A DNA stretch of 64,000 bases, from the NCBI GenBank assembly GCA_934120715.1, contig CAKOUW010000001.1, positions 262,599-326,598 on the forward strand. Reading direction: 5' to 3'. Shown here one piece after another: positions 5,292 through 27,715 of this stretch. This DNA comes from an uncultured Bacilli bacterium. GTDB lineage: Bacteria > Bacillota_I > Bacilli_A > RF39 > UBA660. A model generated the notes under the pieces. That model was not told the origin of the DNA. It saw nothing but the letters and a program-made list of their open reading frames with translations, and did no database searches. Made by a program: the position numbers and the translations under genes. Every line of letters starts with the position of its first letter. The stretch's first letter is position 1.

Positions 5292-5632
5292 GTAGAACAA
5301 AAGAATAAAAATTAAAATAATTTTAAATTTTTATTCGCATTGGTCGTCACCGATCAACATTCCTACTTCATAGATAGAGTATTCTCTATTCTCCATAGGC
5401 TTAAATTCCGATAGTCGCTACCGTACTTTTTTATTTTACTTTTCTTCTTCTTAATTATTTTAACAATATATTTTTAATCCTTTAAACATAATATTTACAC
5501 TCATATTTATATCTCTATCATTTTCATAACCACAATTTATATATGTAATGCACCTCCATAATCTTGTCTTACTATAATAATGCACAAACATTTGTTTGCC
5601 AATACATTTCTTTAAATATATACCATTAGTTA
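5292..5632. repeat. copy 1 of a ~330-bp repeat; inverted with respect to copy 2 at 27386-27715
   Basis: The reverse complement of 5292-5632 aligns to 27386-27715 at roughly 95% identity (few substitutions, one ~12-nt indel). Contains an imperfect 16-bp palindrome GCAAACAAATGTTTG(T/C)GC and a terminal AT-only palindrome. Confidence 0.75.
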
Positions 5633-5680
5633 ACACTGTTCTTTATAAAAAAAATCCTTATAAATAAAAAAGGAAGAATT

Positions 5681-7498
5681 TTACTCTTCCTTTTCAAACT
5701 GAGAATTATATAAATTAGCATAAAAACCACCTTTTTTTAGAAGTTCTTCATGATTTCCTTGTTCAACAATATCTCCTTCATTCATGACTAAGATTAAGTC
5801 AGCATTTTTAATAGTTGATAATCTGTGAGCAATTATGAAACTGGTTCTTCCTTCCATTAATTTATCCATGGCGTTTTGAATTAGAATCTCAGTTCTGGTA
5901 TCTACACTACTAGTTGCTTCATCTAAAATTAGTATCTTAGGGTTAGCAAGTATAACTCTAGCTATTGTTAATAATTGTTTTTGACCACCGGAAATATTAT
6001 CAGCTTCTTCATTTAAAACCATATCATAACCGTCAGGAAGCGTTTTGATAAAATGATCGACGCTGGCTGTTTTGCAGGCTTCAATTATTTCGTGATCATC
6101 GGCATCTAATTTTCCATATTTTATATTTTCTTTTATTGTGCCATTAAATAACCATGTATCCTGTAGAACCATTCCAAATAATTTTCTTATTTCATGTCTA
6201 TCGAATTTTGTTATATCTTTACCATCTATTAAAATTTTTCCATCATTTAATTCATAAAAACGCATTAGTAATTTTACGATTGTAGTCTTTCCTGCTCCAG
6301 TTGGACCTACGATGGCAATTTTTTGACCACTTTTAACCTTGGCTGAAAAGTCTTTGATAATTATTTTATTTTCATTATAACCAAATTTTACATGATCAAA
6401 TTCAATATTACCTTCAATGTTATTTATTTTTAATGGATTAGTTGGAGCGGCCTTTTCTTCTTCAGTTTTTAAGAAGTCAAAAACTCTCTCACTTGCGGCT
6501 ACTGCAGATTGAATATTACTCATTACTTGAGATAATTGATTTATTTGTTGGGTGAAATTTCTAACGTATTGGGTAAATGATTGAATTTCTCCAACTTCTA
6601 TCTTATCAATAATAACCATGTATCCACCTAAAATAGATACTACTACATAACCTAAGTTTCCAATAAATTGCATTATTGGATGCATAGCTGTTGATAGGAA
6701 TTGGCTTTTCCAAGCACTATTATATAAAGTTTGGTTTAATTCTTTAAACTCGTCTATAGCTTGATTTTCAGCATTAAATGCTTTTACTATATCATGACCA
6801 CCATATATTTCTTCTATGTGTCCATTTAAATGTCCTAAATAGTCTTGTTGCATGGCAAAGTATTTTTGACTCTTTTTAACGATTTTACCTAGTACTAGGG
6901 AACAAAGTGGTATTATTAGAAGACAAGTAATTGTCATTGTCACATTTATTGATATCATCATAATTGTTATACCAATTATTGTTGCTATACCGGTTATTAT
7001 AGTTGTGATTGATTGATTTAGACATTGTGTTAGCGTATCAATATCATTAGTTATAATTGATAAAACTTCACCATGAGTTTTATTATCAAAAAAGCTCATT
7101 GGCAGGCGGTTAATTTTCTCACTTAGTTGATTTCTTAATTTATATGATAAGTCATTTGATACATCACTCATAATTATTCCTTGTATTCCTGAACATAAGG
7201 CGCTAATTATGTATAGTATTACTAGTAATAGTGATGTTTTTCCTATGTAGTTAAAGTCTATTCCTCCGGTATTGGATATTTTCTTAATTAGACCATTAAA
7301 TATTTCTGTTGTTATATTTCCTAATATTTTAGGACCTATTATAACAAATACTGTTGATAATATAGCAAAAAAGATAACGATTGCTATTTTTAACTTGTAC
7401 TTTTTTAAATAAGAAAGAAGTTCTAAGAGAGTGCTTTTAAAATCTTTAGCTTTTTCTGAGGTATGATTTTGACCTGGTCCATGTCCAACTTTAGGCAT
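5681..7498 (-). CDS. ABC transporter, fused permease/ATP-binding subunit (type I exporter, 605 aa)
   Basis: Six-TM N-terminal domain, Walker A GPTGAGKTT, ABC signature LSGGQKQ, Walker B ILILDEATS. Confidence 0.85.
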   Translation of the reverse strand: MPKVGHGPGQNHTSEKAKDFKSTLLELLSYLKKYKLKIAIVIFFAILSTVFVIIGPKILGNITTEIFNGLIKKISNTGGIDFNYIGKTSLLLVILYIISALCSGIQGIIMSDVSNDLSYKLRNQLSEKINRLPMSFFDNKTHGEVLSIITNDIDTLTQCLNQSITTIITGIATIIGITIMMISINVTMTITCLLIIPLCSLVLGKIVKKSQKYFAMQQDYLGHLNGHIEEIYGGHDIVKAFNAENQAIDEFKELNQTLYNSAWKSQFLSTAMHPIMQFIGNLGYVVVSILGGYMVIIDKIEVGEIQSFTQYVRNFTQQINQLSQVMSNIQSAVAASERVFDFLKTEEEKAAPTNPLKINNIEGNIEFDHVKFGYNENKIIIKDFSAKVKSGQKIAIVGPTGAGKTTIVKLLMRFYELNDGKILIDGKDITKFDRHEIRKLFGMVLQDTWLFNGTIKENIKYGKLDADDHEIIEACKTASVDHFIKTLPDGYDMVLNEEADNISGGQKQLLTIARVILANPKILILDEATSSVDTRTEILIQNAMDKLMEGRTSFIIAHRLSTIKNADLILVMNEGDIVEQGNHEELLKKGGFYANLYNSQFEKEE

Positions 7499-9665
7499 TT
7501 TCTAATTCCTCCTTACTTAATTGTGATTGAGCTATTTCCTTATATATTTTACATTTTTCTAATAGTTCTTTATGTGTTCCTATACCAACTATATTGCCTT
7601 CATTTAAGACGACTATTTTATCTGCATTCATAATGGTTGATATTCTTTGAGCAACTATTAGTACTGTTTTATTTTTAGTTATTTTAGCTAGCTCTTTACG
7701 TAATTTTGCATCTGTTTTAAAGTCTAGGGCTGAGAATGAGTCATCAAAGATGTAAATATCTGGATTTTTAGCGATGGCACGAGCTATAGATAACCTTTGT
7801 TTTTGACCACCAGAGACGTTAGTTCCACCTTGAGCTATTTGATAGTTTTCTTTTCCTTTTAGCTTTGAAACAAATTCAGTGGATTGAGATATATCTAGTG
7901 CTTTTTTTACCATTTCATCTGTTATATTATTGTTTCCATATTTTATATTTTCTTTAATTGTTCCAGTGAATAGAACACCCTTTTGAGGAACAAATCCTAT
8001 TTTATCACGTAAGCTTTTAAGACTTACTTCTTGAATGTTTGTATCATCTATTAAAATTTCACCACTAGTTATATCATAGAATCTTGGAATTAAATTTATT
8101 AGAGTAGATTTCCCAGAACCGGTTGAACCTATAAAAGCGGTTGTTTCACCACTTTCAGCAGTGAAGTTGATGTCTGTCATTACATCATAATCAGCATCTG
8201 GATATCTAAAAGAAACATTTTTAAATTCTATTTTATTAGTGCCATTTTTCTTAAATTCTATCGAGTTTTCTGGATCGGTAACAGTATTTTTAGTTTCTAA
8301 TACTTCCATTACTCTTTTAGCTGATACGTTGGCTCTTGGTAACATGATTGACATCATAGAAATCATTAAGAAAGCCATGATTATTTGCATTGTATATTGG
8401 ATGTAGGCCATAATATCTCCTACTTGCATGCTTCCATTGTCAACACCTATTGCTCCTTTATAAATTAGGGCAATACTTACAAAATTCATTATTAGCATCA
8501 TAAGAGGCATCATAAAACTCATTACCCTATTTACGAATAAGTTTACTTTAGTTAATCTTAAATTAGCATCATCAAATCTTTTTTCTTCGTGTTTTTCATT
8601 TGAAAAAGCTCTAATAACTGGTAGACCTGATAGTATTTCTCTAGTTACTAAGTTAAGCTTATCTATTAGCTTTTGAATCTTTGTAAACTTTGGCATTGCT
8701 ACTATGAATAAAGTAATGATTACCACTAGGATTGATAAGATGGCAAGCCCTATAATATAGGTCATAGAGGCATTAGTTCTAAGCGCTTTTATTACACCAC
8801 CTATACCAATTATTGGAGCGTAAAATACTACTCTAAATAGAAATACTATTACCATTTGAACTTGTTGAATATCATTAGTTGTTCTGGTTATTAATGATGC
8901 CTGCCCTAAGTTCTTCATTTCACTTTTTGAAAAACCAACCACTTTTTTGAAAACTTTATCACGCAATGTTTTAGATAGTTTAGCTGCCATTTTTGAACCA
9001 ATATAGACTGTTAGTATACCATCTATCATTATAAGCATTGCTATCAAGATCATTATGGCTCCAGCTTTTATAATGTATAAAGTTTGGATCTTATTAACAT
9101 CAATATTAATTCTTTTATATTCTGTTTTAACATAATTTACAGCTGCTTGATCAATAATTGTCGTTGGATAATCTGCCATTTTTTCATCAAATGTTTTTAA
9201 CATTTTATTTTTTTCTTCTTCTGGCATTACTTTTAATAATCGATATATATCAGTACCCTTTGGAATATTAAAATTTTCTGTTGACTTATCACTTTCCTTA
9301 GCTTGATCAATGAAACTGATTATAGTCATTGGTTTTCTTAATATATTATTAATTTTTGTAGTATCTTTTTCATCTTTTAACTTATAAATGACTTCGCCGT
9401 TTGCTTTTTTATTTGATTTGTAGTAGCTATCATTTATATATTTTTGGTCACTTTCGGGCATAAATAATAGTATTTTGTCATAGCTTGTCTGCCCTATTTC
9501 TGTGATAGCAGCATTTTCTATTCCAGACTGTTGTATTCCAATGTTTACAATTTTTGATGTATAGTCTGGTAAAGTTAAATCAAGCCCAGCTTGAACAACA
9601 AGTAAAAATATGATGGCGAGACAAGATACAACTGAACTTTTCAAATATTTAAATACTTTAATCAT
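7491..9665 (-). CDS. ABC transporter, fused permease/ATP-binding subunit with large extracytoplasmic loop (724 aa); heterodimer partner of 5681-7498
   Basis: Walker A GSTGSGKST, signature VSGGQKQR, Walker B IYIFDDSFSALD. About 140-aa hydrophilic insert after TM1. 8-nt overlap with the downstream gene. Confidence 0.85.
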   Translation of the reverse strand: MIKVFKYLKSSVVSCLAIIFLLVVQAGLDLTLPDYTSKIVNIGIQQSGIENAAITEIGQTSYDKILLFMPESDQKYINDSYYKSNKKANGEVIYKLKDEKDTTKINNILRKPMTIISFIDQAKESDKSTENFNIPKGTDIYRLLKVMPEEEKNKMLKTFDEKMADYPTTIIDQAAVNYVKTEYKRINIDVNKIQTLYIIKAGAIMILIAMLIMIDGILTVYIGSKMAAKLSKTLRDKVFKKVVGFSKSEMKNLGQASLITRTTNDIQQVQMVIVFLFRVVFYAPIIGIGGVIKALRTNASMTYIIGLAILSILVVIITLFIVAMPKFTKIQKLIDKLNLVTREILSGLPVIRAFSNEKHEEKRFDDANLRLTKVNLFVNRVMSFMMPLMMLIMNFVSIALIYKGAIGVDNGSMQVGDIMAYIQYTMQIIMAFLMISMMSIMLPRANVSAKRVMEVLETKNTVTDPENSIEFKKNGTNKIEFKNVSFRYPDADYDVMTDINFTAESGETTAFIGSTGSGKSTLINLIPRFYDITSGEILIDDTNIQEVSLKSLRDKIGFVPQKGVLFTGTIKENIKYGNNNITDEMVKKALDISQSTEFVSKLKGKENYQIAQGGTNVSGGQKQRLSIARAIAKNPDIYIFDDSFSALDFKTDAKLRKELAKITKNKTVLIVAQRISTIMNADKIVVLNEGNIVGIGTHKELLEKCKIYKEIAQSQLSKEELENA

Positions 9666-10253
9666 TTAATCCTCCTTATATATTCCATAACATATTATGT
9701 CTAGCTTTTTTAGATATTGAACTTTTATTTCTTCATTTAACTCATTTTTAAAACATTCTGTTATTGATAAAAATAAATTATGTATAAACATACTAAATAT
9801 AAATTCTAAATCACAACTTTTTATCTTGCTGCTATCAATATCTTTTTCTATGTATAAAAATAGTAGATGCCCCAAATTTTTTCTTAAATTACTATGAATA
9901 TTGTAGAAAATAGAGATATTTTTTAAAACCCCTTGATAACTATTATCAAAAATTAAAGTTACTGCTTTATCATATAATTTTATAAATGTATTTCTTAGTT
10001 CACCTTTATTTTCTATTAACATTTCTTTTACTATGTCATTTAATTTTTTGTTGTATTCGTCTATTATATATAAAAATAAATCATCTTTATCTTTAAAGTA
10101 CATATAAAAGCTACCCCTTGGAATACTTGCCTTAGAAATGATTTTATTTATAGACACATCATAGTAATTATTATTAGAAAATTCTGTAATAGCGGCTTTT
10201 ATTAATTTTTGCTGCTTTTTAATATCTAAATTTAGAAATGTTTTTGTGGGCAT
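9666..10253 (-). CDS. TetR/AcrR-family transcriptional repressor (195 aa)
   Basis: N-terminal TetR HTH (AAITEFSNNNYYDVSINKIISKASIPRGSFYMYF). Immediately precedes, and is translationally adjacent to, the ABC pair. Confidence 0.75.
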   Translation of the reverse strand: MPTKTFLNLDIKKQQKLIKAAITEFSNNNYYDVSINKIISKASIPRGSFYMYFKDKDDLFLYIIDEYNKKLNDIVKEMLIENKGELRNTFIKLYDKAVTLIFDNSYQGVLKNISIFYNIHSNLRKNLGHLLFLYIEKDIDSSKIKSCDLEFIFSMFIHNLFLSITECFKNELNEEIKVQYLKKLDIICYGIYKED

Positions 10254-10308
10254 AATTATTTTCCTTTCTAGCTATAACATAAATATATATTATGCTATAT
10301 AATTATAT

Positions 10309-10323
10309 TATGACAAGTTGTCA
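10309..10323. promoter_or_regulatory. perfect 7-1-7 palindrome ATGACAAGTTGTCAT between -35-like TTGACG and the -10 region upstream of the TetR gene; candidate TetR operator
   Basis: Seen directly in sequence. Position is typical for autoregulated TetR operons. Confidence 0.4.
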
Positions 10324-10384
10324 TGCGTCAACCAAAATTTTGCAAAAGAAAAAACTTGGGAACACCAAGTCTTGAATTATTATA

Positions 10385-10461
10385 TGGTAGCCTGTACGGA
10401 ATTCGAATCCGTGAATGCTGCCTTGAGAGGGCAGTGTGTTAAGCCACTTCACCAACAGGCC
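10385..10461 (-). tRNA. tRNA-Glu (anticodon CUC)
   Basis: Cloverleaf folded by hand: acceptor GGCCTGT/ACAGGCT, anticodon stem CTGCC/GGCAG with loop CTCTCAA, T-loop TTCGAAT, encoded CCA. Own TTGTCA-17-TAAAAT promoter. Hairpin plus T-run terminator downstream. Confidence 0.8.
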
Positions 10462-10562
10462 ATAAATGTCTCTAATTAAAAGACATTTATATTTTAACAT
10501 TTTTTTATTTTTTTGACAATAGAATTTATGATATTTTGGAATTATCTTTTTAAATATTCTCT

Positions 10563-13199
10563 TTATATTATAAATTTAATTAGCCAGATCAATATAACAA
10601 TTACATATAATACTATTGCTCCATAAAATAATGTGCTATAAGTATAATAGGCAGCTGTTTTTAAAAACTTGTTACTAGTGGCCTTTTTAAAGTCAATTGA
10701 TAATATAACAAATATTATAGTTGCAACTAGAGATATTATTATTCCTTTTTTTAAGTCTTTGTTTTTATATGTATATACAATACTACTATGCCCCTTTTCT
10801 ACTTTAACACCTAGTAATCCTCCAAACATCTTAATAGTGTTTTTATTTTTGTTATTGACTAAAACATTGTAGTTACCACTATAAGATACTGGTATAACTA
10901 AATAGCCATCTGTATTGGTAGTAACATCAATCTTTATTTTATTTTTATCAAATAAAATATTATAATTTAACTTATTATTTTTAATAAAATCTTCATATTT
11001 GCTAATACTCATGGTAGAAATAGTTAGTTTAGAGATATCAATTGGTTTAATTAATTTGATTTTTATATTAACATTTTCATTATCATAAACTCCTAAACTA
11101 TAAGTACCATTACTAGTTTTAGTGGGATAGGAATCACTATATAGTTTATCATTAATATAAATAAGAGCTATGTTTTTAAATTCACCTTTAAGGCTTTCAT
11201 CTAAAGTTTTTAAAAGATCTAAATATAAAATAGACTTTTCTCTAACTTTGATGTCATACTCTATATAATTATCATTACTTTTGATAACTGTTCTTCCACT
11301 TTTACTAGTAGAAATGCCCTTAATATTCTTTGCTTGATAAATGCTAAATAAGTTATCATTAGAAGTGATACTATTATATATTTTATTTTGATAAGTAAAA
11401 GTATCGTCTTTATCTATATTAAAATTATTTTTAGCTAAATACAAATAATTTAGGTCATAATTTAACTCATAGAAGTTATATCCGTATTTACTATCTTTTA
11501 AAGTATAAAAATCACTTTCTATATCTTTATCTGTAAGAAAATATTTATTGGAAAGAATAGTGTCTGTAAATAAAGTACCACCATTAGAAAATATCATTGT
11601 CCAAAAGCTAGAGTAACCTAGTTTCTTATAAAATACTAAAGAGTTTCTATTTACCAGAGAGGTAAAATGATCAATTGACTGATAATTACTAACAATTCCA
11701 TCATTAATAACAAAGTCTGTCATATCTGAAGTTTCTGTCTTTAATTTATAATAATTATTAGAATTTTTATTTTCTATATTATTTAAGACTGTATAAGAGT
11801 TTTTAATTATACCTTGATAATTTTTAATCCCAATATATAAAAATGTATTAAATATGATATTACTAATAATGACTATATATATTATAGGCTTGTATATTTT
11901 TTCGTTTCTAAATAGATTTAATCCTACATTGATAATAAATATTACTATTGATAATAAAGTAAGTATTATAAAGGCTTTTTTGGCATAAATCATTGTAATA
12001 TTATAGACTGCTGTTTGTATATCTCTATATACCAATTTAAATGTAATAATGTAAATACTTATTAATAGGAAAATGCTTAATACACTAATTATTTTTAAGA
12101 TTTTATCAGATAACGAAATATTAATTTTGATATTTTTAATATTAAAGAGATAACTTCCACCTAAAACTAGTAAGTAAAATAGTATAAAACCATATCTATT
12201 AGGGAAAAATGAATAAGACATAAAATGAAATATTTTATTTAATGGTTCTACTATGTAGGGAATAATTAATATTAAGATTGCTGGTATATACCATTTAAGA
12301 AATTTTTCATTATTCTTTCTATTAATTATTAATAAGCAAGTAAAAGTAACTAATAAAATAGATATATTAAAGAAATTTAATTTATCAAATAAACAGCCAA
12401 GTAAATTATTAAAGATATTATTAGAAGTATTGGAACGAGCTGATGAAAATATTTGTCTAAGTGTTGGATAAGAAATGAATGAAGTCATTATCATTGGCAA
12501 TATTGTAAATATACCTAAACTAAGCATTACTTTTTTTTGCTTTTCCTTAGAGACATTACACTTGATATAAATAAATGCTATTAAAAATATAAATATAAGC
12601 ATCATATATGATAAATAGAATGAGAAACATATGGCTAAAAATAATGTAATGCCATACATATATGGTTTATCTTCATCAATTAATTTTTTAAGTCCTACTA
12701 CAATTAATGGAAACATATACACAACATCCATCCAAGCAGTGATTTGATAATTAATAAGACTATATCCACTAAAGGCGTATAATAATGCTAACGGAATAAA
12801 CATTTTATTATCTTTTTTAAATAAATATTTTAGGGAATATAAACAAGTAATAGCAGAAAGGACAAATTTTACCATAACAATTAAAGAAATGGCTAGATAG
12901 ATATCATTTCTTTTAAAGAAGAGAATGATAAAATTAATTGGACTTGCTAAATAGTAAGAAAATATTCCAAAGAAGTTTTCTCCACCACCTGATGTATAAT
13001 CTACAAGTAAAGATCCACTTTCTAAAATCGTATCCCATAAATGATAAAAAAGAGCTGATATTTGTGTATACAGGTCTCCTGTTAAGACTGTATTTTTACC
13101 AAATGGATAAATTCTAAGAATTAAGAATAAAATTACTAATATCCCTACTGAAATACCTCCAACAATGAAATAATCTTTAAATTTCTTCATAATTACCAC
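10563..13199 (-). CDS. YfhO-family polytopic membrane protein (878 aa), putative glycosyltransferase
   Basis: N-terminal motifs IYPFG...LTGDLYTQ...F and YYLASPINFIILFF match the conserved YfhO N-terminus. More than 12 TM segments plus a large C-terminal extracytoplasmic domain and final TM. Confidence 0.7.
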   Translation of the reverse strand: MVIMKKFKDYFIVGGISVGILVILFLILRIYPFGKNTVLTGDLYTQISALFYHLWDTILESGSLLVDYTSGGGENFFGIFSYYLASPINFIILFFKRNDIYLAISLIVMVKFVLSAITCLYSLKYLFKKDNKMFIPLALLYAFSGYSLINYQITAWMDVVYMFPLIVVGLKKLIDEDKPYMYGITLFLAICFSFYLSYMMLIFIFLIAFIYIKCNVSKEKQKKVMLSLGIFTILPMIMTSFISYPTLRQIFSSARSNTSNNIFNNLLGCLFDKLNFFNISILLVTFTCLLIINRKNNEKFLKWYIPAILILIIPYIVEPLNKIFHFMSYSFFPNRYGFILFYLLVLGGSYLFNIKNIKINISLSDKILKIISVLSIFLLISIYIITFKLVYRDIQTAVYNITMIYAKKAFIILTLLSIVIFIINVGLNLFRNEKIYKPIIYIVIISNIIFNTFLYIGIKNYQGIIKNSYTVLNNIENKNSNNYYKLKTETSDMTDFVINDGIVSNYQSIDHFTSLVNRNSLVFYKKLGYSSFWTMIFSNGGTLFTDTILSNKYFLTDKDIESDFYTLKDSKYGYNFYELNYDLNYLYLAKNNFNIDKDDTFTYQNKIYNSITSNDNLFSIYQAKNIKGISTSKSGRTVIKSNDNYIEYDIKVREKSILYLDLLKTLDESLKGEFKNIALIYINDKLYSDSYPTKTSNGTYSLGVYDNENVNIKIKLIKPIDISKLTISTMSISKYEDFIKNNKLNYNILFDKNKIKIDVTTNTDGYLVIPVSYSGNYNVLVNNKNKNTIKMFGGLLGVKVEKGHSSIVYTYKNKDLKKGIIISLVATIIFVILSIDFKKATSNKFLKTAAYYTYSTLFYGAIVLYVIVILIWLIKFII

Positions 13200-13482
13200 C
13201 TAACTGCTTAAATAATACATAAAACAACTACTACTCTTTTGATTTTACATTATTTACTTATTTATTAAACTTTTTAAAATATAAATAAATCTAAAGTAAT
13301 TATAACATGATATATTATTAAATTTCTATAGAACATTTGACAATATATTTTTTACCATTCAAACATAATATTTATACTCGCAACTTTTTTAATTTATATT
13401 ATAAAAAAAGAAAATCAAGTTTATTGTATACTTGACCTTCTTTCTTAGACTTTTTTATGATAATCTATGTGTTACTTTAATT

Positions 13483-14421: not shown

Positions 14422-14422
14422 A

Positions 14423-15601: not shown

Positions 15602-15642
15602 TTCTTATTTTTTATATTATATATTAATGTAATTTATATTAA

Positions 15643-17102: not shown

Positions 17103-17164
17103 TGTATCACCTATTTTAATATACAATTAAAAAAACGACTTATCTGTCGTTTTACGGTACTAAT

Positions 17165-17479: not shown

Positions 17480-17531
17480 ACTACATATCCTCCAATTATA
17501 TTAGTATTGTATCATAGATTATTAATTTTAG

Positions 17532-18248: not shown

Positions 18249-18299
18249 TATTAGTATTAGTAAAATATTAAATTATATACAAAAAAGGCATTAAGCCTT

Positions 18300-19280: not shown

Positions 19281-19447
19281 AAAATCACCTCTTTAAAAAC
19301 TTACTACATTAATATTATCAACTATATATAATTAATTATTTCTATAAAATTTTACCAATTTTTAAATATCATTATATATAAAGGTTCATATAAAATTGCC
19401 TATTTTTGGATATTAAATTTAAAAAATATAAATAAAAAAGAGTTTAT

Positions 19448-19675
19448 TTACTCTTCTACTTTAAAATCTTCTATACTTCCATCAGCATTTACTATTTTAG
19501 TAATTGCTTCTTCAGCATTTTTTAATTTTTGATCACAATTTTTAGCAAGTATCATTGCTTCATTAAATTCTTTTATGGCATCATCTAATGGAACTTCTCC
19601 ACTTTCTAATTTTTTTACAATTTCTTCTAATTTTTTTAAACTTTCTTCAAAATTTAATTCTTTTGTAGTAGCCAT
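19448..19675 (-). CDS. xseB: exodeoxyribonuclease VII small subunit
   Basis: 75 aa with LESGEVPLDDAIKEFNEA motif. Directly downstream of xseA. Confidence 0.8.
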   Translation of the reverse strand: MATTKELNFEESLKKLEEIVKKLESGEVPLDDAIKEFNEAMILAKNCDQKLKNAEEAITKIVNADGSIEDFKVEE

Positions 19676-19686
19676 AGTTACCTCCT

Positions 19687-20940: not shown

Positions 20941-20956
20941 ATATATTTATCTCCAA

Positions 20957-21358
20957 TTAGTTTTCTTCATCATGATAAATTTTATCTAGGACACCATTAA
21001 TCATTTTTATAACTGATTCATCAGAATATTTTTTGGCTAACTCTATTGCTTCATTTATCGCAACAATGCTTGGAGTGTCACTATATTTTAACTCATAAAT
21101 TCCTAAAGATAAGATAGCTTGATCTACTTTGCTAAGACGATCAATTGTCCAATTATTTAGATATTTATTGGCTAATGTTTCTATTTGTTTTTTATTTTGC
21201 AATATTTTCTTTACTGAGGTATTGACAAAGTCATTTTGAATTTCTGTTTGTTCTAAAATTAATTTATCAATATCATATTCTAGATTTGCTTCTTCTAAAA
21301 TACTAACTTGATATATTACTTTAATTATTATATCTCTTAATTCACTTCTATTTCTCAT
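20957..21358 (-). CDS. nusB: transcription antitermination factor NusB
   Basis: 133 aa with NusB-like helical repeats. Synteny nusB-xseA-xseB as in Bacillus. Confidence 0.75.
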
Positions 21359-21412
21359 TTTATCACCATCCTAATTTTATCATAATAGAGACTGTATTGT
21401 CATTAATTTATT

Positions 21413-23965
21413 TTAGTCTCTTTTTTTAGCCTTTTTATTTAATTCATAGAGAAAATTCATAGCTTCCATTGGACTCATTTCGAGTGGATTAATATTTCTT
21501 ACAGCTTCTTCTATTTCATTTGGTTTTGTTTTTATTTCTTCTTCTGTTAATTCAAAAAGCGATGTTTGTGTAAATGTTTCCTTCTTTATATTTTTCTTTT
21601 CATATATGTTTAAAATCTCTGTTGCTCTATCTATTAGAGACTTTGGCAGTTTTGCAAGAGATGCTACATGTATACCATAACTTTTATCTACTGCACCATT
21701 TTTAACTTTATGGAGGAATGTTATTTTGCCATTTTCTTCAACGGCTGAAACGTGAACGTTTCGTAAATCTTTTAGATCTTTTTCTAAAACGGTTAATTCA
21801 TGATAATGAGTTGAAAACATTGTTTTAGCTTTAATATTATCATGAATATATTCTAGTATTGCTTGAGCTAGACTCATTCCGTCATAAGTTGCGGTTCCTC
21901 TTCCTAATTCATCGAAAAGAATAAGACTATTTTCAGTAGCTTCACTTATTGCATAGTTGGCTTCTTTCATTTCGACCATAAAAGTAGATTCACCACTTAC
22001 TAAATCGTCACTGGCTCCAATTCTTGTGAAAATTTTATCAAAAATTGGCATTGAACAGCTTTCACAAGGAACAAAACAACCTATTTGAGCCATTATTACT
22101 GTAATAGCACATTGCCTCATATAAGTTGATTTACCTGCCATATTGGGACCAGTAATTAGTAGGATATTAGAGTTTTTGTCCATTATTATGTCATTGGCTA
22201 TATATTTATCTTTCATAACTTTTTCTACTACGGGATGACGGCAATTAATCATTTTTACTACTCTTTCAGTAGTTAAGACTGGTCTTACATATTTATTACT
22301 GTCACTAACAATTGAGAATGCTTGAAGCATATCTACTTCGCTAATTATTTTAGCTGTTAGTTGTAGATTTTTTATATATCTTTTTACTACTTCTCTTATA
22401 TCCATAAATATTTTATATTCAAGATTAATAATTTTTTCTTCAGCACCTAAAATAATGCTTTCTTTTTCTTTTAATACAGGCATGGTAAATCTTTCACAAT
22501 TGGCTAAAGTTTGACGTCTTTCATAACCATATTCTTCTTTTATAAGGGGAATTTGTCCTTTACTTATTTCAATATAGTATCCAAATATTTTATTAAAGCC
22601 TACTCTTAAGTTTTTAATACCTGTTCTTTTTCTTTCGTCTTGTTCTAGTTCTAGTATAAAGTCTTTTGAACCGCTACTAATTTCTTTTAATTCATCCAGT
22701 TCTTTACTATATCCAGGTTTAATTAAATGACCTTCGTGTAATGTGAATGGAGCATCTTCTAAAATGGTATTTTCTAGGAGTTGGTATAGATCAGAAAAAT
22801 CTATTATTTCTTTATCATAATTTAATTCTTTTAATATTTTAGCTATATTTGGTAATACTTTTAATGAATTTTTTAACTGTAATAAATCTTTGGCATTTAA
22901 ATTACCATAGGTTATTCTTCCACATAGCCTTTCTAGATCGTAAACATTATCAAGCTCTTTAATTAAATCATCTCTTAGAATAAATTCAGTAGAAAGTTTC
23001 GATACAAGGTCATATCTTCTTTCTAGTTGTTCTTTACTGGTTAAGGGGTTTTCAATATTGTATTTTAAAAATCTTGAACCCATGGCTGTTTTATTTTTAT
23101 CAAGTAACCAAAAGAGACTAAATTGTCTTTCTCTATTTCTAATAGTCTCTGTTAATTCTAGATTTTTCTTTGTATTTATATCAAATTCTAGAAATTCTTT
23201 TTGTTTTATTATTTTACATTTTTGAAGATGATGTAAGTCTCCTTTTTTAGCGTCAATAATGTATTTTAGTAAATGCTTGATTGTAGTTACTATTTTGGCA
23301 TCTTCTATATCTGAATATATATAGTTATAGTCTTCATTATCAAGAGTTTCTTTAGTGATGGTTACTAACATATCATAATTGGTTCTAAGAATGGAAATTA
23401 TTTCTCTATCTATTGATTCGTTGACAATTACTTCTCTAAAATTATTCTTACTTATTTCTTTTATTACTTTATCTTTTTCGCCTTCAACTAGTAAGGCATA
23501 GACTTCTCCAGTTGAAATGTCGATGTAACTTACTCCATAGCAATATGAAAAGTCATAGATGTTTGCGATATAATTGTTGGTTTTAGAGTCAATATTGGCA
23601 TCTAGCCTAGTTCCTTTAGTAATTACTTGAATGACGTCTCTTTTAACCATACCCTTGGTTTCCTTTGGATCTTCTAGTTGTTCACATATAGCTACTTTGT
23701 AACCTTTATCTATTAATTGATCAACATATGAAGAATAAGCGTGATGTGGAACACCGCACATTGGAACTCTTTCATCAAGTCCAGCTTGTTTTCCTGTAAG
23801 AGTTAATTCTAATATTCTTGAGGCTAGGATGGCATCATCAAAAAACATCTCATAAAAGTCTCCAAGTCTAAAAAAGATAATGCAATCTTCATAATTATCT
23901 TTAATTTCCATATATTGAGCCATCATAGGGCTTAATTTTGTTCTATCTACTTCACTGCGTCTCAT
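21413..23965 (-). CDS. mutS: DNA mismatch repair protein MutS
   Basis: Conserved N-terminal LSPMMAQYMEIK...FFRLGDFYEMF and Walker A GPNMAGKSTYMRQ. Probable ATG start (MRRSEV) with a TATAAT just upstream. Terminator of the upstream gene at ~24000-24025. Confidence 0.9.
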   Translation of the reverse strand: MRRSEVDRTKLSPMMAQYMEIKDNYEDCIIFFRLGDFYEMFFDDAILASRILELTLTGKQAGLDERVPMCGVPHHAYSSYVDQLIDKGYKVAICEQLEDPKETKGMVKRDVIQVITKGTRLDANIDSKTNNYIANIYDFSYCYGVSYIDISTGEVYALLVEGEKDKVIKEISKNNFREVIVNESIDREIISILRTNYDMLVTITKETLDNEDYNYIYSDIEDAKIVTTIKHLLKYIIDAKKGDLHHLQKCKIIKQKEFLEFDINTKKNLELTETIRNRERQFSLFWLLDKNKTAMGSRFLKYNIENPLTSKEQLERRYDLVSKLSTEFILRDDLIKELDNVYDLERLCGRITYGNLNAKDLLQLKNSLKVLPNIAKILKELNYDKEIIDFSDLYQLLENTILEDAPFTLHEGHLIKPGYSKELDELKEISSGSKDFILELEQDERKRTGIKNLRVGFNKIFGYYIEISKGQIPLIKEEYGYERRQTLANCERFTMPVLKEKESIILGAEEKIINLEYKIFMDIREVVKRYIKNLQLTAKIISEVDMLQAFSIVSDSNKYVRPVLTTERVVKMINCRHPVVEKVMKDKYIANDIIMDKNSNILLITGPNMAGKSTYMRQCAITVIMAQIGCFVPCESCSMPIFDKIFTRIGASDDLVSGESTFMVEMKEANYAISEATENSLILFDELGRGTATYDGMSLAQAILEYIHDNIKAKTMFSTHYHELTVLEKDLKDLRNVHVSAVEENGKITFLHKVKNGAVDKSYGIHVASLAKLPKSLIDRATEILNIYEKKNIKKETFTQTSLFELTEEEIKTKPNEIEEAVRNINPLEMSPMEAMNFLYELNKKAKKRD

Positions 23966-24035
23966 ATACTTCACCACTACATATTATAGCAAAAAAAGTT
24001 ATTCAAAGAAAGAAAAATAGTAAAGTTTATCTTTA

Positions 24036-25226
24036 CTACTTTAAATACATAACATCAATATCAACACTTCCATCAATACCATCAATTTCTCCATTTTCAC
24101 ATAGTTGCCATAATAGGTAATCTTTTGTATAGTTTGTTTTCTCTGTATAGTGGGCTAGCCAGGTTTTATGTTTTGTTTTTAACCATATGTTTTCTAGATA
24201 ATTTTTACTACTGTAAAGCATAGAATCATAGCCTGATTTTTCCAATTCATTCATGAAAGCGTTAGCAATTTCAGTTAATTCATAAAAACTAACATTATAA
24301 GTATTGAAATTTGTCCAATCTTCCCAATCGTAGGCAACTGGTAAGTCTATATCATAATTTTCAATTTGTTTTACTATCCATTTGGCATCCTGTACGGCTT
24401 GCTTTTTGGAATTAGCGTAAGAATAGAAATATAAGCCGACTGGAATATTATACTTCTTTGCCTCTTCAATGTTTCTTTGAAATTTTTCATCTATAAAGTA
24501 TTCGCCACCTATTCCTCTAGTTCCACCTATCCTAATTATAACAAATTCTACTCCAGCTTCTTTAATCTTTTTAAAATCTATTTCTTTTTGCCATTTAGAT
24601 ACATCTATTCCAATTTTTGTTTTTGATGTTTTATGTTTTTCTACTATATCAGAAAAAATTGTTTTTGAGTTGTTGCTTGTTCTGTTTTTTGGCTTTTCAT
24701 AAACATTTAAGGTGAAATTAACTGATGAGGTATTATTACTTGAATCTATTGCTTTATATACTAAATTGTATTCTCCGGGCTCATGTAGATTATAGTTACC
24801 TTCAATATAACATTTGGGATTACTATCATAATTATCACCACACATTATGGAGTTGGCTAAATCATCTGTACTATCTACTGGTATATTATATCTTGAATTT
24901 AACCAAATAAGTGGTGGCGTTGTATCTACTACTTTATAATTAAATGAATAGGATACTTTTATATTATTGTCATTTATATAACTAAATTTTATATTATTAT
25001 CTCCTAATTTTAATGTGTTAACATTTTTATCATTAATAATTTTACCGTTTATTTTCTTTATAAACGAGGATATTTTCCTTTTTTCGTTAAATTCTACTTC
25101 TAAATTATTATTTAAAACTATTTCTACTTTAGCTAGTACTTTATGCCTAATCACTAATATTACTACTATGGCTATTAAAAGTATTACTACGGATAATATT
25201 ACTGTTATTTTTTTCTTCATGAGCAC
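24036..25226 (-). CDS. membrane-anchored GH25 muramidase (lysozyme)
   Basis: N-terminal TM. C-terminal GH25 motifs GIDVSKWQKEIDF, FVIIRIG, DWEDW. Confidence 0.7.
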   Translation of the reverse strand: MLMKKKITVILSVVILLIAIVVILVIRHKVLAKVEIVLNNNLEVEFNEKRKISSFIKKINGKIINDKNVNTLKLGDNNIKFSYINDNNIKVSYSFNYKVVDTTPPLIWLNSRYNIPVDSTDDLANSIMCGDNYDSNPKCYIEGNYNLHEPGEYNLVYKAIDSSNNTSSVNFTLNVYEKPKNRTSNNSKTIFSDIVEKHKTSKTKIGIDVSKWQKEIDFKKIKEAGVEFVIIRIGGTRGIGGEYFIDEKFQRNIEEAKKYNIPVGLYFYSYANSKKQAVQDAKWIVKQIENYDIDLPVAYDWEDWTNFNTYNVSFYELTEIANAFMNELEKSGYDSMLYSSKNYLENIWLKTKHKTWLAHYTEKTNYTKDYLLWQLCENGEIDGIDGSVDIDVMYLK

Positions 25227-25279
25227 CTCTTATATTATATTAGATTCAAATATGTAAAAAGGAATACGTATTATATTCC

Positions 25280-26938
25280 TTATTTATTAATATATTTTTT
25301 ATATAAGTTTATTCTAGCTTTTATTCTATCTTTGCCTAATATTTTCATGATTGAAAATAAATCTGGTGATTTACTTCTTCCTGTTACCATTACTCTTAGT
25401 GCTTCACAAATATCACCAACATGGCCTTTATATAATTCAGGATTTTTCTTATAATCTTTTGGACTAGCTGCATATCCATTTTTAGTTGCGAAATCCTTAG
25501 TCATATTAAACCACTCTTCATTAGTAGCATCTAGATCTAATGCTTCTAGATAATCTAAGGCTAAGTCAATATCATATTCTTTGTCACCATCATATTTGGA
25601 ATAATTTTCTTTAATAAATAAACTGTCAATAGCATAGGAAAATTCTTCCTTAACATCACTGTATTTTGAAATATCTTTTCTTGGTCTTGGTCCTTCTTTT
25701 TCAATATTTAAGAATTTTTGCATATCATCTTTATTAGCTTTTAATAATTCAGCATATTCTGGATCATATTTATTAGCCCAAGATAGCGTTTCATTATAAA
25801 CTTCTTCACCTTTTTTTCTAGAAAAATAAGTTTTACATATATTGTTGAATTTTGCTTCATCAAAGCTTGTACCACCTATTGCTTGCTTATCAAAACTAAA
25901 TGTGAAGTCTTTTATACTCTTCTCTTGATTTTCTAGATACCATTCTTCAAAATTTGTATTTGCAATGGTTGCTAGATAAAGGTGTAGAGCTTCTATTGGT
26001 ATTCCACCTTCCTCATAGAATTTTACACCAGCCCAAGGGTCTTTTCTTTTACTTATTTTTCTGATTGCGCCTGTTTCTTTATCTTTTATAGTTATTGGGG
26101 CAATGTGGGCATATTCTGGTCGCTTAAAGCCTAATATTTCAAAAAGTTGAATATGTAGTGGTATACTTGAAACCCATTCATCACCACGGATAACATGAGT
26201 TGTATGCATTAAGTGATCATCGATTGCATGAGCAAAGTGATATGTTGGGATACCATCTTTTTTTAGTAATACTGTATCTACATCATGTTCAGGAAATTTC
26301 ATTTTACCTTTAATACAGTCTACTATTTCAACTTGCTTTGTAGGATCGCCTGGAGATTTTAGTCTTATAACGTATTCTAAGCCTGCGGCTATTTTTTCTT
26401 TTACTTCAGCAAGGGACAAATCACGATCAACTGCGTATTGACCATATATGCCAATTTTTGTTTTATTAATTTCTTGTTCTTCTCTTATTTCGGCAATTTC
26501 TTCTTCTGTCATAAAGCATGGATAAGCATATCCATTTATTATTAAATCTTTTACGTATGTTTGATAAATTTCTATTCTTTCGCTTTGCCTATATGGACCA
26601 TAAATTCCATCAAAACTATAACCTTCGTTTGGCATTATATCAAAGCCATGTAATACACCAACTATATTTTCAATTCCACCCTCAACCATTCTTTTTTGAT
26701 CGGTATCTTCAATTCTTAGGAAGAAACTTCCATTTGATTGTCTGGCATAAACCATATCGCAGAAAGCTGAGAATAAGTTTCCTAAATGAACACTACCAGT
26801 TGGTGATGGTCCATATCTTGTTACCATTGCTCCTTCTGGAAGATTTCTCTCTGGGTATTTTTCTTCAAAATAACTACGACTATGTTTTATATTTGGAAAT
26901 AATAATTCAGCTAATTCAATTCTTTCATTTTTTTCCAT
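25280..26938 (-). CDS. gltX: glutamate--tRNA ligase (GluRS family, 552 aa)
   Basis: Class I motifs PSPTGSVHLGN (HIGH-type), RIEDTDQKR, KISKRK (KMSKS-type). Longer than typical GluRS. Confidence 0.8.
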   Translation of the reverse strand: MEKNERIELAELLFPNIKHSRSYFEEKYPERNLPEGAMVTRYGPSPTGSVHLGNLFSAFCDMVYARQSNGSFFLRIEDTDQKRMVEGGIENIVGVLHGFDIMPNEGYSFDGIYGPYRQSERIEIYQTYVKDLIINGYAYPCFMTEEEIAEIREEQEINKTKIGIYGQYAVDRDLSLAEVKEKIAAGLEYVIRLKSPGDPTKQVEIVDCIKGKMKFPEHDVDTVLLKKDGIPTYHFAHAIDDHLMHTTHVIRGDEWVSSIPLHIQLFEILGFKRPEYAHIAPITIKDKETGAIRKISKRKDPWAGVKFYEEGGIPIEALHLYLATIANTNFEEWYLENQEKSIKDFTFSFDKQAIGGTSFDEAKFNNICKTYFSRKKGEEVYNETLSWANKYDPEYAELLKANKDDMQKFLNIEKEGPRPRKDISKYSDVKEEFSYAIDSLFIKENYSKYDGDKEYDIDLALDYLEALDLDATNEEWFNMTKDFATKNGYAASPKDYKKNPELYKGHVGDICEALRVMVTGRSKSPDLFSIMKILGKDRIKARINLYKKYINK

Positions 26939-27028
26939 GCTACACCTCTTCTCAATTCATATATAATAATATAATAAAATGTAATAAAAAGCAAATAAAA
27001 AAGTCCTTATTAGGACTATTAACAAATT

Positions 27029-27103
27029 TGGCTGCCCCAGTTAGATTCGAACTAACGCGTCGTGCGGTCAGAGCGCACTGCCTTACCGCTTGGCTATGGG
27101 GCA
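27029..27103 (-). tRNA. tRNA-Gln (anticodon CUG)
   Basis: Hand-folded cloverleaf: D-arm AGCCAAGCGGTAAGGCA typical of tRNA-Gln, anticodon stem GTGCG/CGCAC with loop CTCTGAC, encoded CCA. Hairpin plus T-run terminator at ~27000-27025. Confidence 0.8.
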
Positions 27104-27234
27104 ATGTGTTATGTTGAACACATATTAATTATACCAAATATAATTTAAATGTCAAAATAAATTGTGTGAAAAATAAAATTTATGTATTGCCAAGAATAAA
27201 AAAGTATGTTATCATTTATTTGTTGACTGTTTAT

Positions 27235-27311
27235 GGCGCTGTAGCTCAGTTGGCTAGAGCAATCGGTTCATACCCGATAGGTCGTGAGTTCGAATCTCTC
27301 CGGCGCTACCA
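27235..27311 (+). tRNA. elongator tRNA-Met (anticodon CAU)
   Basis: GGCGCTGTAGCTCAGTTGGCTAGAGCA...GGTTCATACCCGAT...TTCGAATC...CGCTACCA. TTGCCA-17-TATCAT promoter upstream. Terminator 27322-27352. Confidence 0.85.
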
Positions 27312-27321
27312 AATTTGTTAT

Positions 27322-27352
27322 AGACTCAAGCCTTTGCTTGAGTTTTTTTGTT
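27322..27352 (+). terminator. rho-independent terminator after tRNA-Met
   Basis: ACTCAAGCctttGCTTGAGT hairpin followed by TTTTTTT. Confidence 0.7.
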
Positions 27353-27385
27353 TATAAGGATTTTTCTCCTTATAAACAATAGTAT

Positions 27386-27715
27386 TAGTTAATGGTATAT
27401 ATTAAAAAAAGTATATTAGCAAACAAATGTTTGCACATTGTTATAGTAAGACAAGATTATGGAGGTGCATTACATATATAAATTGTGGTTATGAAAATGA
27501 TAGAGATATAAATACGAGTATAAATAACATTAAAAATATATTGCCAAAATAATTAAGAATAAGAAAAGTAAAATAGAAAAGTACGGTAGCGACTATCGGA
27601 ATTTAAGCCTATGGAGAATAGAGAATACTCTATCTATGAAGTAGGAATGTTGATCGGCGACGACCAATGCGAATAAAAATTTAAAATTATTTTAATTTTT
27701 ATTCTTTTGTTCTAC
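27386..27715. repeat. copy 2 of the ~330-bp repeat (inverted partner of 5292-5632)
   Basis: See copy 1. Ends in an AT-only palindrome, followed by a separate GC-containing bidirectional hairpin at 27728-27757. Confidence 0.75.

Follow-up and report, generated by a model that had tools for sequence, protein, structure and literature searches.

Two copies of a short repeat lie in inverted orientation on either side of a 22-kb block of genes in the 64-kb stretch of DNA analysed here (the window), which raises the question of whether they are a recombination substrate, a structured RNA or something else. The first-pass annotation had described a pair of about 330 bp and about 95% identity, and a repeat search of the window recovered it as two sets of inverted arms, 5292-5478/27529-27715 (187 nt, 97% identical) and 5492-5648/27370-27526 (157 nt, 90%). 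Unit boundaries were set by comparison with empty sites and related elements, giving refined units of about 365 bp (Table 1) that differ from one another by 23 substitutions, one 11-nt indel and one 3-nt indel. The block between them does consist of core genes, encoding ABC exporters, TetR, YfhO, LysR, sigE, spoIIGA, spoIVB, xseA, nusB, mutS and gltX. All of the motifs listed earlier for the repeat were found: the GCAAACAAATGTTTGYGC palindrome, GGAGGTG, the GC core and the terminal AT hairpin. A 44-nt fragment at 13336-13379 confirms the partial third copy, with 38 of 44 positions matching the element, the maximum in 30 Markov-1 randomised windows being 33 of 44.

The GC-rich core of the repeat is a structured RNA conserved in more than 110 stretches of DNA from uncultured gut Bacilli and 'Tenericutes' MAGs, which bears out the earlier fallback idea of a dispersed structured-RNA repeat family, with a covarying core present in many copies in many genomes. 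More than 115 stretches contain the 19-mer GTACGGTAGCGACTATCGG, nearly all of them gut Bacilli or 'Tenericutes' MAGs and often several times per MAG and at contig ends. A covariance-model search of the whole window returned only the two known copies and no such RNA at 13336-13381. The scaffold consists of helices P1 (CGGUAG/CUAUCG) and P2 (CCUA/UAGG), an inner hairpin P3, and P4, which carries a GNRA loop; in the subfamily of the window copies, P4 reads GAUCGGYGACGACCAA. The covariance analysis proposed in the first-pass annotation, run on 96 homologues, revealed strong covariation. The proposed partners are paired in 89.6% of cells, compared with 32-46% for slid partners, and the covariation score of 0.503 (at most 0.118 with slid partners) was reached in 0 of 500 shuffles. 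Both sides have changed in 17 of the 26 pairs, with covariation in P2, P3, P4 and the pair closing the GNRA loop; P1 is invariant by construction because it lies inside the 19-mer search seed.

Comparison with Rfam 15 matched no curated family, with no match at the gathering score or at E <= 1 and nothing relevant up to E <= 10. The best match, Ref70 (Enterococcus sRNA 70, RF02841), covers the 5' hairpin only (18.5 bits, E = 1.4), and since the window RNA is far below the Ref70 gathering threshold of 115 bits, it is not a member of that family. A full-text literature search for the core sequence found no paper, a viral-contig scan with the 19-mer gave zero matches, and the element had no blastn match among annotated plasmids and phages. 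A metagenome scan with a subfamily-specific 24-mer found two stretches, both without the 19-mer; the one inspected was unrelated sequence of higher GC content.

The neighbourhood of the RNA points to its origin. Upstream lies the 3' end of a gene ending ...CxxCG..NDRDINASINIMFEGLK*, and the RNA is directly 3' of a full tnpB in 35 of the 64 loci that could be judged. The other 29 (about 45%) have no intact adjacent tnpB, 18 having none detectable and 11 a partial one. The intact ORFs of two loci, L046 and L093, contain the Pfam domains OrfB_IS605, Cas12f1-like_TNB and HTH_OrfB_IS605, score 293 bits with NCBIfam guided_TnpB (cut-off 100) and match the ISDra2 TnpB structures 8H1J and 8EXA with E ~7e-62. 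Solo copies with their own promoter and without tnpB also exist, one such locus being common to three MAG species (L050, L067 and L086). In 111 of 116 copies, similarity stops at the same right end, CTTTTGTTC(T), whatever sequence is downstream. Because so many copies follow an intact tnpB and the right end is conserved, we identify the RNA as a TnpB omegaRNA (reRNA) scaffold. The 64-kb window itself contains no intact tnpB. No tnpA was seen beside any copy, an IS1341-like, tnpB-only organisation, and a crude motif scan and a tblastn search with an approximate query found no Y1 tnpA in 932 kb of fetched loci, a weak negative.

The repeat, then, is composed of the left end, tnpB relic, omegaRNA and right end of a TnpB element of the known IS200/IS605 family, in an arrangement resembling that of palindrome-associated transposable elements (PATEs). 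In each copy, a left end that contains the promoter and RBS leads into three start codons joined to the last 24 codons of tnpB; then come an A-rich spacer, a scaffold of about 130 nt and the right-end hairpin, followed by CTTTTGTTCT. The earlier statement that the repeat encodes no ORF holds insofar as an intact gene is absent, but each copy keeps an in-frame relic of about 24 codons from the end of tnpB. In copy 1 this relic was found by tblastn with the L046 TnpB (73% identity at 5466-5564, E = 3e-10), and the left end aligns with that of the intact element L093 (TTGACAAACGTTTGTTTGTATATTATTATAGTAAGTCAAGATGATGGAGGTGTATTACATG). Copy 1, copy 2 and L009 have one and the same deletion junction, whose ATAAATT microhomology occurs at both positions in intact L046. 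The shared junction implies that the mini-element itself is the unit that was copied.

Terminal inverted repeats are absent: when the first 30 nt are compared with the reverse complement of the final 30, 11 positions agree in each copy, the chance level for AT-rich DNA. All homologues have the right-end hairpin, a strong one (-8.2 kcal/mol, z = -4.5). At the left end, copy 2 folds into a strong hairpin and copy 1 into a weak one (-2.2), and intact L093 and L046 show no evident hairpin there; a second conserved palindrome sits in the promoter spacer. Two other interpretations of parts of the element were discarded. The 44-nt module, given as 42 bp in the first-pass annotation, was considered as a promoter or operator that also occurs upstream of yfhO; this idea was rejected, since the module is a coding relic of the TnpB C-terminus (...ASINIMFEGLK...). 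A longer copy 2 tnpB relic ('YISKQMFAHC...'), produced by tblastn extension, was spurious; that stretch belongs to the promoter and palindrome of the left end and has its homologue in the left end of L093.

Table 1. Coordinates of the mini-elements and associated features in the window
Feature	Positions	Strand	Description
Copy 1, complete mini-element (PATE-like, 370 bp)	5294-5663	minus	left end TTATAAGGA... to right end ...CTTTTGTTCT
Copy 1 transposon-adjacent motif (TAM), TTTAT	5664-5668	minus	beside left end; tail of ABC-operon terminator (hairpin 5667-5695)
Copy 1 left end	5545-5663	minus	degraded near-terminal palindrome, promoter-like boxes, tnpB RBS
Copy 1 promoter-like boxes	5597-5602, 5574-5579	minus	TTGGCA, 17 nt, TATTAT; promoter scan 10/12
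Copy 1 palindrome in promoter spacer	5582-5599	minus	GCAAACAAATGTTTGTGC
Copy 1 tnpB RBS	5551-5557	minus	GGAGGTG
Copy 1 tnpB relic	5460-5544	minus	start codon mutated to ATA, then TAT AAA (5536-5544)
Copy 1 tnpB relic, 3' part	5460-5534	minus	last 24 codons and stop, CGYENDRDINMSVNIMFKGLKIYC*; joined at ATAAATT microhomology
Copy 1 omegaRNA (reRNA) scaffold	5295-5426	minus	CM R1 115.8 bits, E = 5e-31
Copy 1 right-end hairpin	5303-5336	minus	followed by UUUUGUUC
Copy 1 predicted guide segment	5276-5293	minus	ACTTTCTACTTGTAAATA; right-end flanking DNA, inferred from TnpB reRNA architecture (PMC8612924)
Isolated tnpB C-terminal coding relic	13336-13381	minus	ASINIMFEW*KIYCQ; adjoining omegaRNA absent
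Copy 2, mini-element (362 bp)	27352-27713	plus	3' of tRNA-Met terminator
Copy 2 TAM, TTTGT	27347-27351	plus	directly before element
Copy 2 near-terminal left-end palindrome	27348-27379	plus	TTGTTTATAAGGA TTTTTC TCCTTATAAACAA; DNA fold -9.9 kcal/mol, z = -7.9
Copy 2 decayed promoter, RBS and tnpB relic	27416-27552	plus	TTAGCA; palindrome 27419-27434; RBS 27461-27467
Copy 2 tnpB relic	27484 to about 27547	plus	11-nt deletion
Copy 2 omegaRNA scaffold	27581-27712	plus	CM R1 114.5 bits; right-end hairpin 27671-27704
Copy 2 predicted guide segment	27714-27731	plus	ACAAAATTCTAAAACTGC; runs into bidirectional terminator 27720-27757

The omegaRNA portion has been conserved to a greater extent than the remainder of the element. 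Between copy 1 and copy 2 it has 1 substitution in 133 positions, compared with 22 in 226 elsewhere (Fisher p = 5e-4), and this single change, GUGA to GCGA in copy 2, keeps the GNRA loop. Within the window, neither predicted guide matches anything besides its own flank with two or fewer mismatches over the first 16 nt. The right-end hairpin and its U-tract resemble an intrinsic terminator and could stop transcription before the guide.

Contigs of the same species from other samples include both empty and filled versions of site 1. BLAST against the empty-site contig L001 breaks exactly at 5664 and 5294, so that copy 1 was inserted precisely, adding 370 bp without target duplication and with a T overlap of 1 nt. 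The flanks of the empty and filled alleles are 99.1% identical (L001 and L002 aligned to the window), which indicates a recent insertion. Five contigs have the empty site (L001-L005); the filled allele occurs in the window, in L139 and L140 and in seven contigs broken within the right end. Contigs from many samples break within the element, which implies that each genome holds several near-identical copies. The filled site has TTTAT and the empty alleles TTAAT or TTGAT, and since TTTAT is one base off every empty allele, the comparison of TAM plus flank is not perfectly clean. Left-end flanks from 15 loci have a T-run followed by A or G and then T, reading TTTAT, TTTGT, CTTAT or TTTTT, and the likely TAM of the family is TTTRT. 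With few exceptions the insertion sites are the T-tract ends of intrinsic terminators, as at copy 1. At site 2, copy 2 is present in two other samples (L009 and L134), and two contigs (L010 and L012) end 30-50 nt inside it; L011 and L013 end 111 nt past the gene for a 176-aa protein, as L012 does. No empty allele of site 2 was found through homologues of this protein, which is species-specific, every contig either carrying the element or breaking in it.

We consider both copies, with a probability of roughly 0.88, to be non-autonomous elements of the PATE type that arose by internal deletion from a tnpB-only insertion sequence of the IS200/IS605 family. Protein-less mini-elements are a known kind of selfish element, neither a new RNA class nor an inversion switch. 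In the mechanism that we propose, a Y1 TnpA supplied in trans would move the element by single-strand "peel and paste", and insertion would occur 3' of TTTRT, in this family almost always at a terminator T-tract end. Transcription from the left-end promoter would cover the omegaRNA, cross the right end and continue for about 16 nt into the flanking DNA. The TnpB of an intact sister element could load the mini-element RNA and cut the vacated site, recognized as TAM plus flank, and recombinational repair after such a cut would restore the element. Given that the window has no intact tnpB and the fetched DNA no tnpA, we infer, rather than observe, use of the RNA in trans. The promoter of copy 2 is decayed in the window strain, as is the left-end palindrome of copy 1.

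Other readings start from particular features of the locus. Two inverted copies of about 365 bp and about 94% identity would in principle be enough for homologous inversion, and the pair could be a functional recombination substrate that flips the 22-kb sigE-mutS-gltX block, whether in a programmed manner or by recurrent RecA-mediated exchange. The site-1 copy of L140 is a mosaic of copy-1 and copy-2 sequence that could reflect gene conversion between the copies, although it may be a short-read assembly chimera. All of the spanning contigs from other samples (L006, L134, L139 and L140), however, have the window's arrangement at both junctions, and gene order is the same in strains without copy 1. 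The GC skew remains negative across both repeats, and the genes there keep to the minus strand. The flanking ORFs scanned had no invertase or recombinase match, the nearest serine recombinase (40439-42292) being part of a separate island. We regard the inversion suggested in the first-pass annotation as extremely improbable; the inverted orientation of the two copies is incidental. It is very improbable, too, that the host uses the conserved RNA as a riboswitch-like cis-regulatory leader whose expression platform is a terminator, or that the RNA is a stand-alone sRNA gene, the link to tnpB being secondary in either case. The terminal hairpin and U-tract, the position of many copies 10-25 nt upstream of an RBS and ATG, and the promoter-driven solo copies, one of them at a locus common to three MAG species, would suit such a role. 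A leader would not be expected to follow intact tnpB at more than half of the judgeable loci, nor to lose similarity at a fixed right end next to mutually unrelated downstream sequences. Copy 2 faces a convergent gene and has no downstream gene to regulate, and the copied unit includes tnpB relics. A terminator follows the RNA, as does a gene at copy 1, an arrangement that had suggested a riboswitch or leader; the idea was rejected because same-species contigs lack the element and relatives have tnpB upstream.

A more credible reading, though one that we still consider unlikely, accepts the same IS605/TnpB-derived identity but takes the copies to be inert fossils, with RNA that is not made or goes unused, nothing to mobilise them, and a site-1 polymorphism that is an old insertion sorted among strains. 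The lack of tnpB in the window and of tnpA in any fetched locus would fit, as would the degraded left-end palindrome of copy 1, the degraded promoter of copy 2 and the plainly decayed third fragment at 13336-13381. Long-dead elements would not be expected to have omegaRNAs nearly identical between copies that have diverged elsewhere, with a sole change that preserves the GNRA loop. The near-identity of the filled and empty flanks argues for a recent event, and the contig breaks for several near-identical copies per genome. Two further readings see more than selfish decay: (a) the mini-elements may be kept for omegaRNAs used in trans, which would supply additional guides to TnpB or to a TldR-like relative with a dead nuclease, and (b) this IS605 subfamily may truly target terminator 3' ends (hairpin plus T-tract) as opposed to being merely tolerated there. 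Part (a) is favoured by the far better conservation of the RNA part and by the solo promoter-driven copies at orthologous loci across species; we regard these two readings as speculative and rather doubtful.

The identification of the copies as PATE-type derivatives replaces a candidate "new structured RNA" or "inversion switch" with a concrete annotation. On sequence grounds, it also defines a previously uncurated TnpB omegaRNA family, with its structure, right end and likely TAM, TTTRT. The family is widespread in uncultured gut Bacilli, and it is useful for annotating MAGs, since the repeats break assemblies, and in searches for compact RNA-guided nucleases and their cognate scaffolds. Site 1, where a single species has both filled and empty alleles, is a natural insertion polymorphism and a possible test bed for the TnpB "homing" model.

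PATEs, which derive from IS200/IS605-type elements, were first described in Haloquadratum walsbyi (PMC3119063), and PATE-like elements encoding omegaRNAs are known in Geobacillus stearothermophilus (10.1101/2023.03.14.532601). Like PATEs, the window copies lack terminal inverted repeats and target duplications, have near-terminal palindromes, of which the left-end one is degraded in copy 1, are too short to encode a protein and are derivatives of tnpB elements by internal deletion at a short direct repeat; copy 1 is also a strain-specific insertion, as PATE insertions are. As in the G. stearothermophilus elements, they carry an omegaRNA that would need TnpB in trans. They differ from known PATEs in their host, an uncultured, low-GC, spore-former-like member of the gut Bacilli, in their end sequences and omegaRNA family, in the poor conservation of the left-end palindrome across the family and in insertion sites that are almost always terminator T-tract ends.

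Among characterized TnpB systems, the reRNA derives from the 3' end of tnpB and the right end, with a guide of about 16 nt from flanking DNA and a TAM (PMC8612924). The intact relatives of the window copies resemble ISDra2 in that their TnpB aligns with it over the full length, and ISGst2 and ISDra2 in where the RNA lies, at the 3' end of tnpB and the right end; the guide, by analogy, would come from flanking DNA. Unlike the case in ISGst2/GstTnpB2 and ISDra2, the scaffold begins 33-90 nt past the tnpB stop codon, clear of the ORF, and no tnpA was seen beside any copy. The TAM of ISDra2 is TTGAT and that of GstTnpB2 is TTTAT (10.1101/2023.03.14.532601), the latter being identical to the motif beside copy 1.

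A repeat search recovered the inverted-repeat pair reported in the first-pass annotation as two arms, 5292-5478/27529-27715 (187 nt, 97% identical) and 5492-5648/27370-27526 (157 nt, 90%). The third partial copy was also found, as a direct match between 5459-5502 and 13336-13379 (44 nt, 86%); 38 of the 44 positions are identical, against a maximum of 33 of 44 among 30 Markov-1 randomisations of the window, which has a GC content of about 26%. The core genes said to lie between the repeats are present as well: two ABC exporters, TetR, tRNA-Glu, YfhO, LysR, sigE, spoIIGA, spoIVB, xseA, nusB, mutS, gltX and tRNA-Gln/Met. Between 1.9 and 31 kb, almost every gene is encoded on the minus strand. Outside the repeat pair, two direct-repeat families (D1 and D2, four to five copies spaced 150-200 nt apart) correspond to five LysM domains within one 290-aa protein; the neighbouring gene encodes a protein that has three PG_binding_1 domains and matches SpoIID weakly.

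Read on the minus strand, copy 1 sits between the terminator of an ABC operon and the gene for a 252-aa hypothetical protein, and its GC-rich core folds and terminates in a hairpin and U-tract. This position and fold suggested a leader RNA, an idea that was dropped because there are same-species contigs without the element. In five of these (L001-L005), chosen as encoding an identical 252-aa protein, only 83 bp separate the ABC gene from the 252-aa gene. When L001 was compared with the window by BLAST, the flanks were 99.1% identical and the alignment broke at 5664 and 5294 with one shared T, which makes copy 1 a precise insertion of 370 bp without target duplication. It is also absent from two more distant relatives, L007 and L008 (82-83% protein identity).

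The site of copy 1 is polymorphic for the element, being filled in the window, in two further contigs (L139 and L140) and in seven contigs that start 27 nt inside the right end, and empty in the five samples represented by L001-L005. The transposon-adjacent motif (TAM) is TTTAT in every filled allele (window, L139, L140), versus TTAAT in all empty same-species alleles (L001 4746-4750) and in L008, and TTGAT in the more distant L007. One base of the TAM tracks the presence of the element perfectly. Since the more distant L008 also has TTAAT, this is probably the ancestral form, and the A-to-T change either made the target or came after the insertion.

We scanned the 19-mer GTACGGTAGCGACTATCGG from the core against one genome per species and found it in at least 115 stretches. 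Among the matches listed, nearly all were from MAGs of uncultured gut Bacilli, "Tenericutes" or Erysipelotrichaceae. A single MAG often had several, and many lay at contig ends; two, in Rhizobium and Alishewanella, were set aside as chance. The element also occurs on six contigs binned as Melainabacteria, Muribaculaceae or Bacteroidaceae (L041, L042, L045, L061, L076, L085), whose AT-rich flanks suggest mis-binned Bacilli rather than horizontal transfer. Nearly all copies end at CTTTTGTTC(T), with unrelated sequence beyond. The sequence 3' of the 19-mer has a common structure with clear compensatory changes, in which we named four helices on a MAFFT alignment of 96 copies: P1 (CGGUAG/CUAUCG), P2 (CCUA/UAGG, alternating with UCUG/CAGA and UCUC/GAGA), the inner hairpin P3, and P4, a GNRA loop closed by a C-G or G-C pair. 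In these 96 copies 89.6% of all cells pair, as against 32-46% when the partners are slid by 1-3 columns, and the covariation score is 0.503 versus 0.118 or less, with 0 of 500 shuffles reaching the observed value; P1 falls within the search seed and is uninformative. The earlier suggestion of a dispersed structured-RNA repeat family was thus borne out. The core matched no Rfam family, nor anything in annotated plasmids and phages, viral contigs or the literature text searched, so that the family is uncurated. In the same window a whole-window Rfam scan at the gathering threshold missed a tRNA-Glu(CUC) that ARAGORN finds and to which a local Rfam scan gives 59.7 bits, which indicates that the fast filters can lose true hits.

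In most loci, the 200-nt stretch 5' of the RNA is the end of a gene, encoding CxxCG, then NDRDINASINIMFEGLK and a stop. The intact ORFs of two loci, L046 (379 aa) and L093 (382 aa), match Pfam OrfB_IS605, Cas12f1-like_TNB and HTH_OrfB_IS605, score 293 bits with NCBIfam guided_TnpB (cut-off 100) and 373 bits with IS200_TnpB, and match solved ISDra2 TnpB structures over their full length (E about 7e-62). The last ~16 nt of the TnpB reRNA, or omegaRNA, come from flanking DNA and serve as guide (PMC8612924). A structured RNA running from just after tnpB to the right end of the transposon is this omegaRNA. It follows a full tnpB in 35 of the 64 copies with sufficient upstream sequence, and none or a fragment in the other 29. 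Three MAG species carry a solo omegaRNA without tnpB but with its own promoter (TTGACG, 17 nt, TATAAT) about 90 nt upstream (L050 4633-4840, L067, L086 7520-7724). The upstream flanks of L050 and L086 are nearly identical and the downstream flank is common to all three, marking a fixed orphan copy at an apparently orthologous locus. The abundance and conservation of such promoter-driven copies lacking tnpB are noteworthy.

Comparison with the left end of the intact L093 resolved the parts of copy 1 (see table). The motifs picked out from the sequence alone each found an identity: the palindrome lies in the spacer of the promoter-like element, GGAGGTG is the tnpB ribosome-binding site, and the "AT-only palindrome" is the right-end hairpin. 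A tblastn search with the L046 TnpB found nothing more than relics, at three places in the window, and the fragment at 13.3 kb is a tnpB coding piece only; a covariance model found no omegaRNA in the window beyond copies 1 and 2.

Features of the mini-element and of other loci in the window
Feature	Position	Strand	Detail
Copy 1	5294-5663	minus	370 bp
TAM of copy 1	5664-5668	minus	TTTAT
Left end, first bases	from 5663	minus	TTATAAGGA
Promoter-like element	left end of copy 1	minus	TTGGCA, 17 nt, TATTAT; palindrome GCAAACAAATGTTTGTGC in spacer
tnpB ribosome-binding site	left end of copy 1	minus	GGAGGTG
Mutated tnpB start	copy 1	minus	ATA-TAT-AAA, fused to last 24 tnpB codons, CGYENDRDINMSVNIMFKGLKIYC and stop
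A-rich spacer	between tnpB relic and omegaRNA of copy 1	minus	33 nt
omegaRNA scaffold	5426-5295	minus	
Right-end hairpin	5303-5336	minus	then TTTTGTTCT
Copy 2	27352-27713	plus	362 bp
TnpB relic	5466-5564		
TnpB relic	13337-13381		
TnpB relic	27412-27525		
tRNA-Glu(CUC)	10388-10461	minus	
LysM protein	30279-31151	minus	290 aa
Segment absent from L009 and L010	35692-42903		7.2 kb
Radical-SAM protein	35778-36563		in 7.2-kb segment
Mob_Pre relaxase	38842-40188		in 7.2-kb segment
Large serine recombinase	40439-42292		in 7.2-kb segment
tRNA-Thr(GGU)	42904-42977		abuts 7.2-kb segment

Copy 2 differs from copy 1 in behaviour: other samples carry it at an identical position (L009, L134), and several contigs terminate 30-50 nt inside it, as expected of a multi-copy repeat. 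At both sites, short-read contigs from many samples start (L141-L147) or end (L010-L013, L131, L132) 27-50 nt inside the element, so that the repeat systematically breaks assemblies of this species. Copy 2 shares its deletion junction with copy 1 and has an additional 11-nt deletion in the relic, a decayed promoter and a well-formed left-end palindrome (-9.9 kcal/mol, z = -7.9). The junction common to copy 1, copy 2 and L009 indicates that the mini-element itself is the unit copied. The two copies differ at 1 of 133 omegaRNA positions versus 22 of 226 in the remainder (Fisher p = 5e-4), and the sole omegaRNA change, GUGA to GCGA, leaves a GNRA loop in place. The pattern is consistent with constraint on the RNA but, as the differences are clustered, falls short of proof.

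The first-pass annotation had also proposed that recombination between the repeats could invert the 22-kb block. Homologous recombination could do so in principle, but nothing indicates that it has occurred: spanning contigs from other samples keep the same junctions as the window, neither GC skew nor gene orientation switches at the repeats, and no flanking ORF scanned matched a recombinase. The only hint of interaction between the copies is the first-site copy of L140 (1790-2231, sample ERZ15610569), a mosaic with a copy-1-like left end and omegaRNA and a copy-2-like middle (the 11-nt deletion, TTGCC, AAGAATAAG). Either the inverted copies have undergone gene conversion, or short-read assembly has produced a chimera. 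Elsewhere in the window, L009 and L010, contigs of the same species, lack a 7.2-kb segment and join 35691 directly to 42904; the segment has the appearance of a strain-specific integrative mobilizable element.

A hairpin and T-run immediately precede the left end in both window copies (5664-5700, 27315-27351) and in L046, L066, L093, L101, L111, L112, L113, L128 and others. A T-run of at least 5 with a hairpin MFE of -5 kcal/mol or lower occurs in 11 of 13 distinct left-end flanks, versus 2.5% of 1500 control TTT[AG]T sites from the same loci (Mann-Whitney p = 9e-9 for MFE and 1e-10 for T-run). This placement of an element subfamily at terminator T-tracts is striking: either the subfamily genuinely targets intrinsic terminators, or insertions there are harmless and survive.

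The element's identity and structure, its exact insertion, the polymorphism and the common deletion junction are demonstrated; its mode of action can be inferred from the established IS605/TnpB mechanism. On that model, TnpA acting in trans would excise the element and insert its top strand 3' of TTTRT. The left-end promoter may drive a transcript through the scaffold into the flank, with predicted guides ACTTTCTACTTGTAAATA and ACAAAATTCTAAAACTGC, for which there is no second target elsewhere in the window. The TnpB of an intact sister element would cut the vacated site, and repair would restore the element. This scheme is weakened by the terminator-like right-end hairpin that comes before the guide, and by the absence of both tnpB and tnpA.

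The kind of element is well known. IS200/IS605 elements are without inverted repeats, make no target duplication, insert 3' of a fixed tetra- or pentanucleotide and have hairpins near both ends (PMC7290912, PMC8612924), and palindrome-associated transposable elements (PATEs) are their protein-less derivatives (PMC3119063). The present element has no terminal inverted repeats, and by locus its left end is preceded by TTTAT (7), TTTGT (5), CTTAT (2) or TTTTT (1). The element shows every feature of this group but two: its left-end hairpin lacks conservation within the family, and no Y1 transposase turned up in the DNA that was fetched, a weak negative. The deletion junction lies within an ATAAATT microhomology that occurs twice in the intact L046 tnpB, near the start and near the Cys motif, and represents the repeat-mediated core deletion described for PATEs (PMC3119063). 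Geobacillus has been noted to harbour PATEs that encode an omegaRNA and would depend on TnpB in trans, and the TAM of its GstTnpB2 is TTTAT (10.1101/2023.03.14.532601), the same as that of copy 1.
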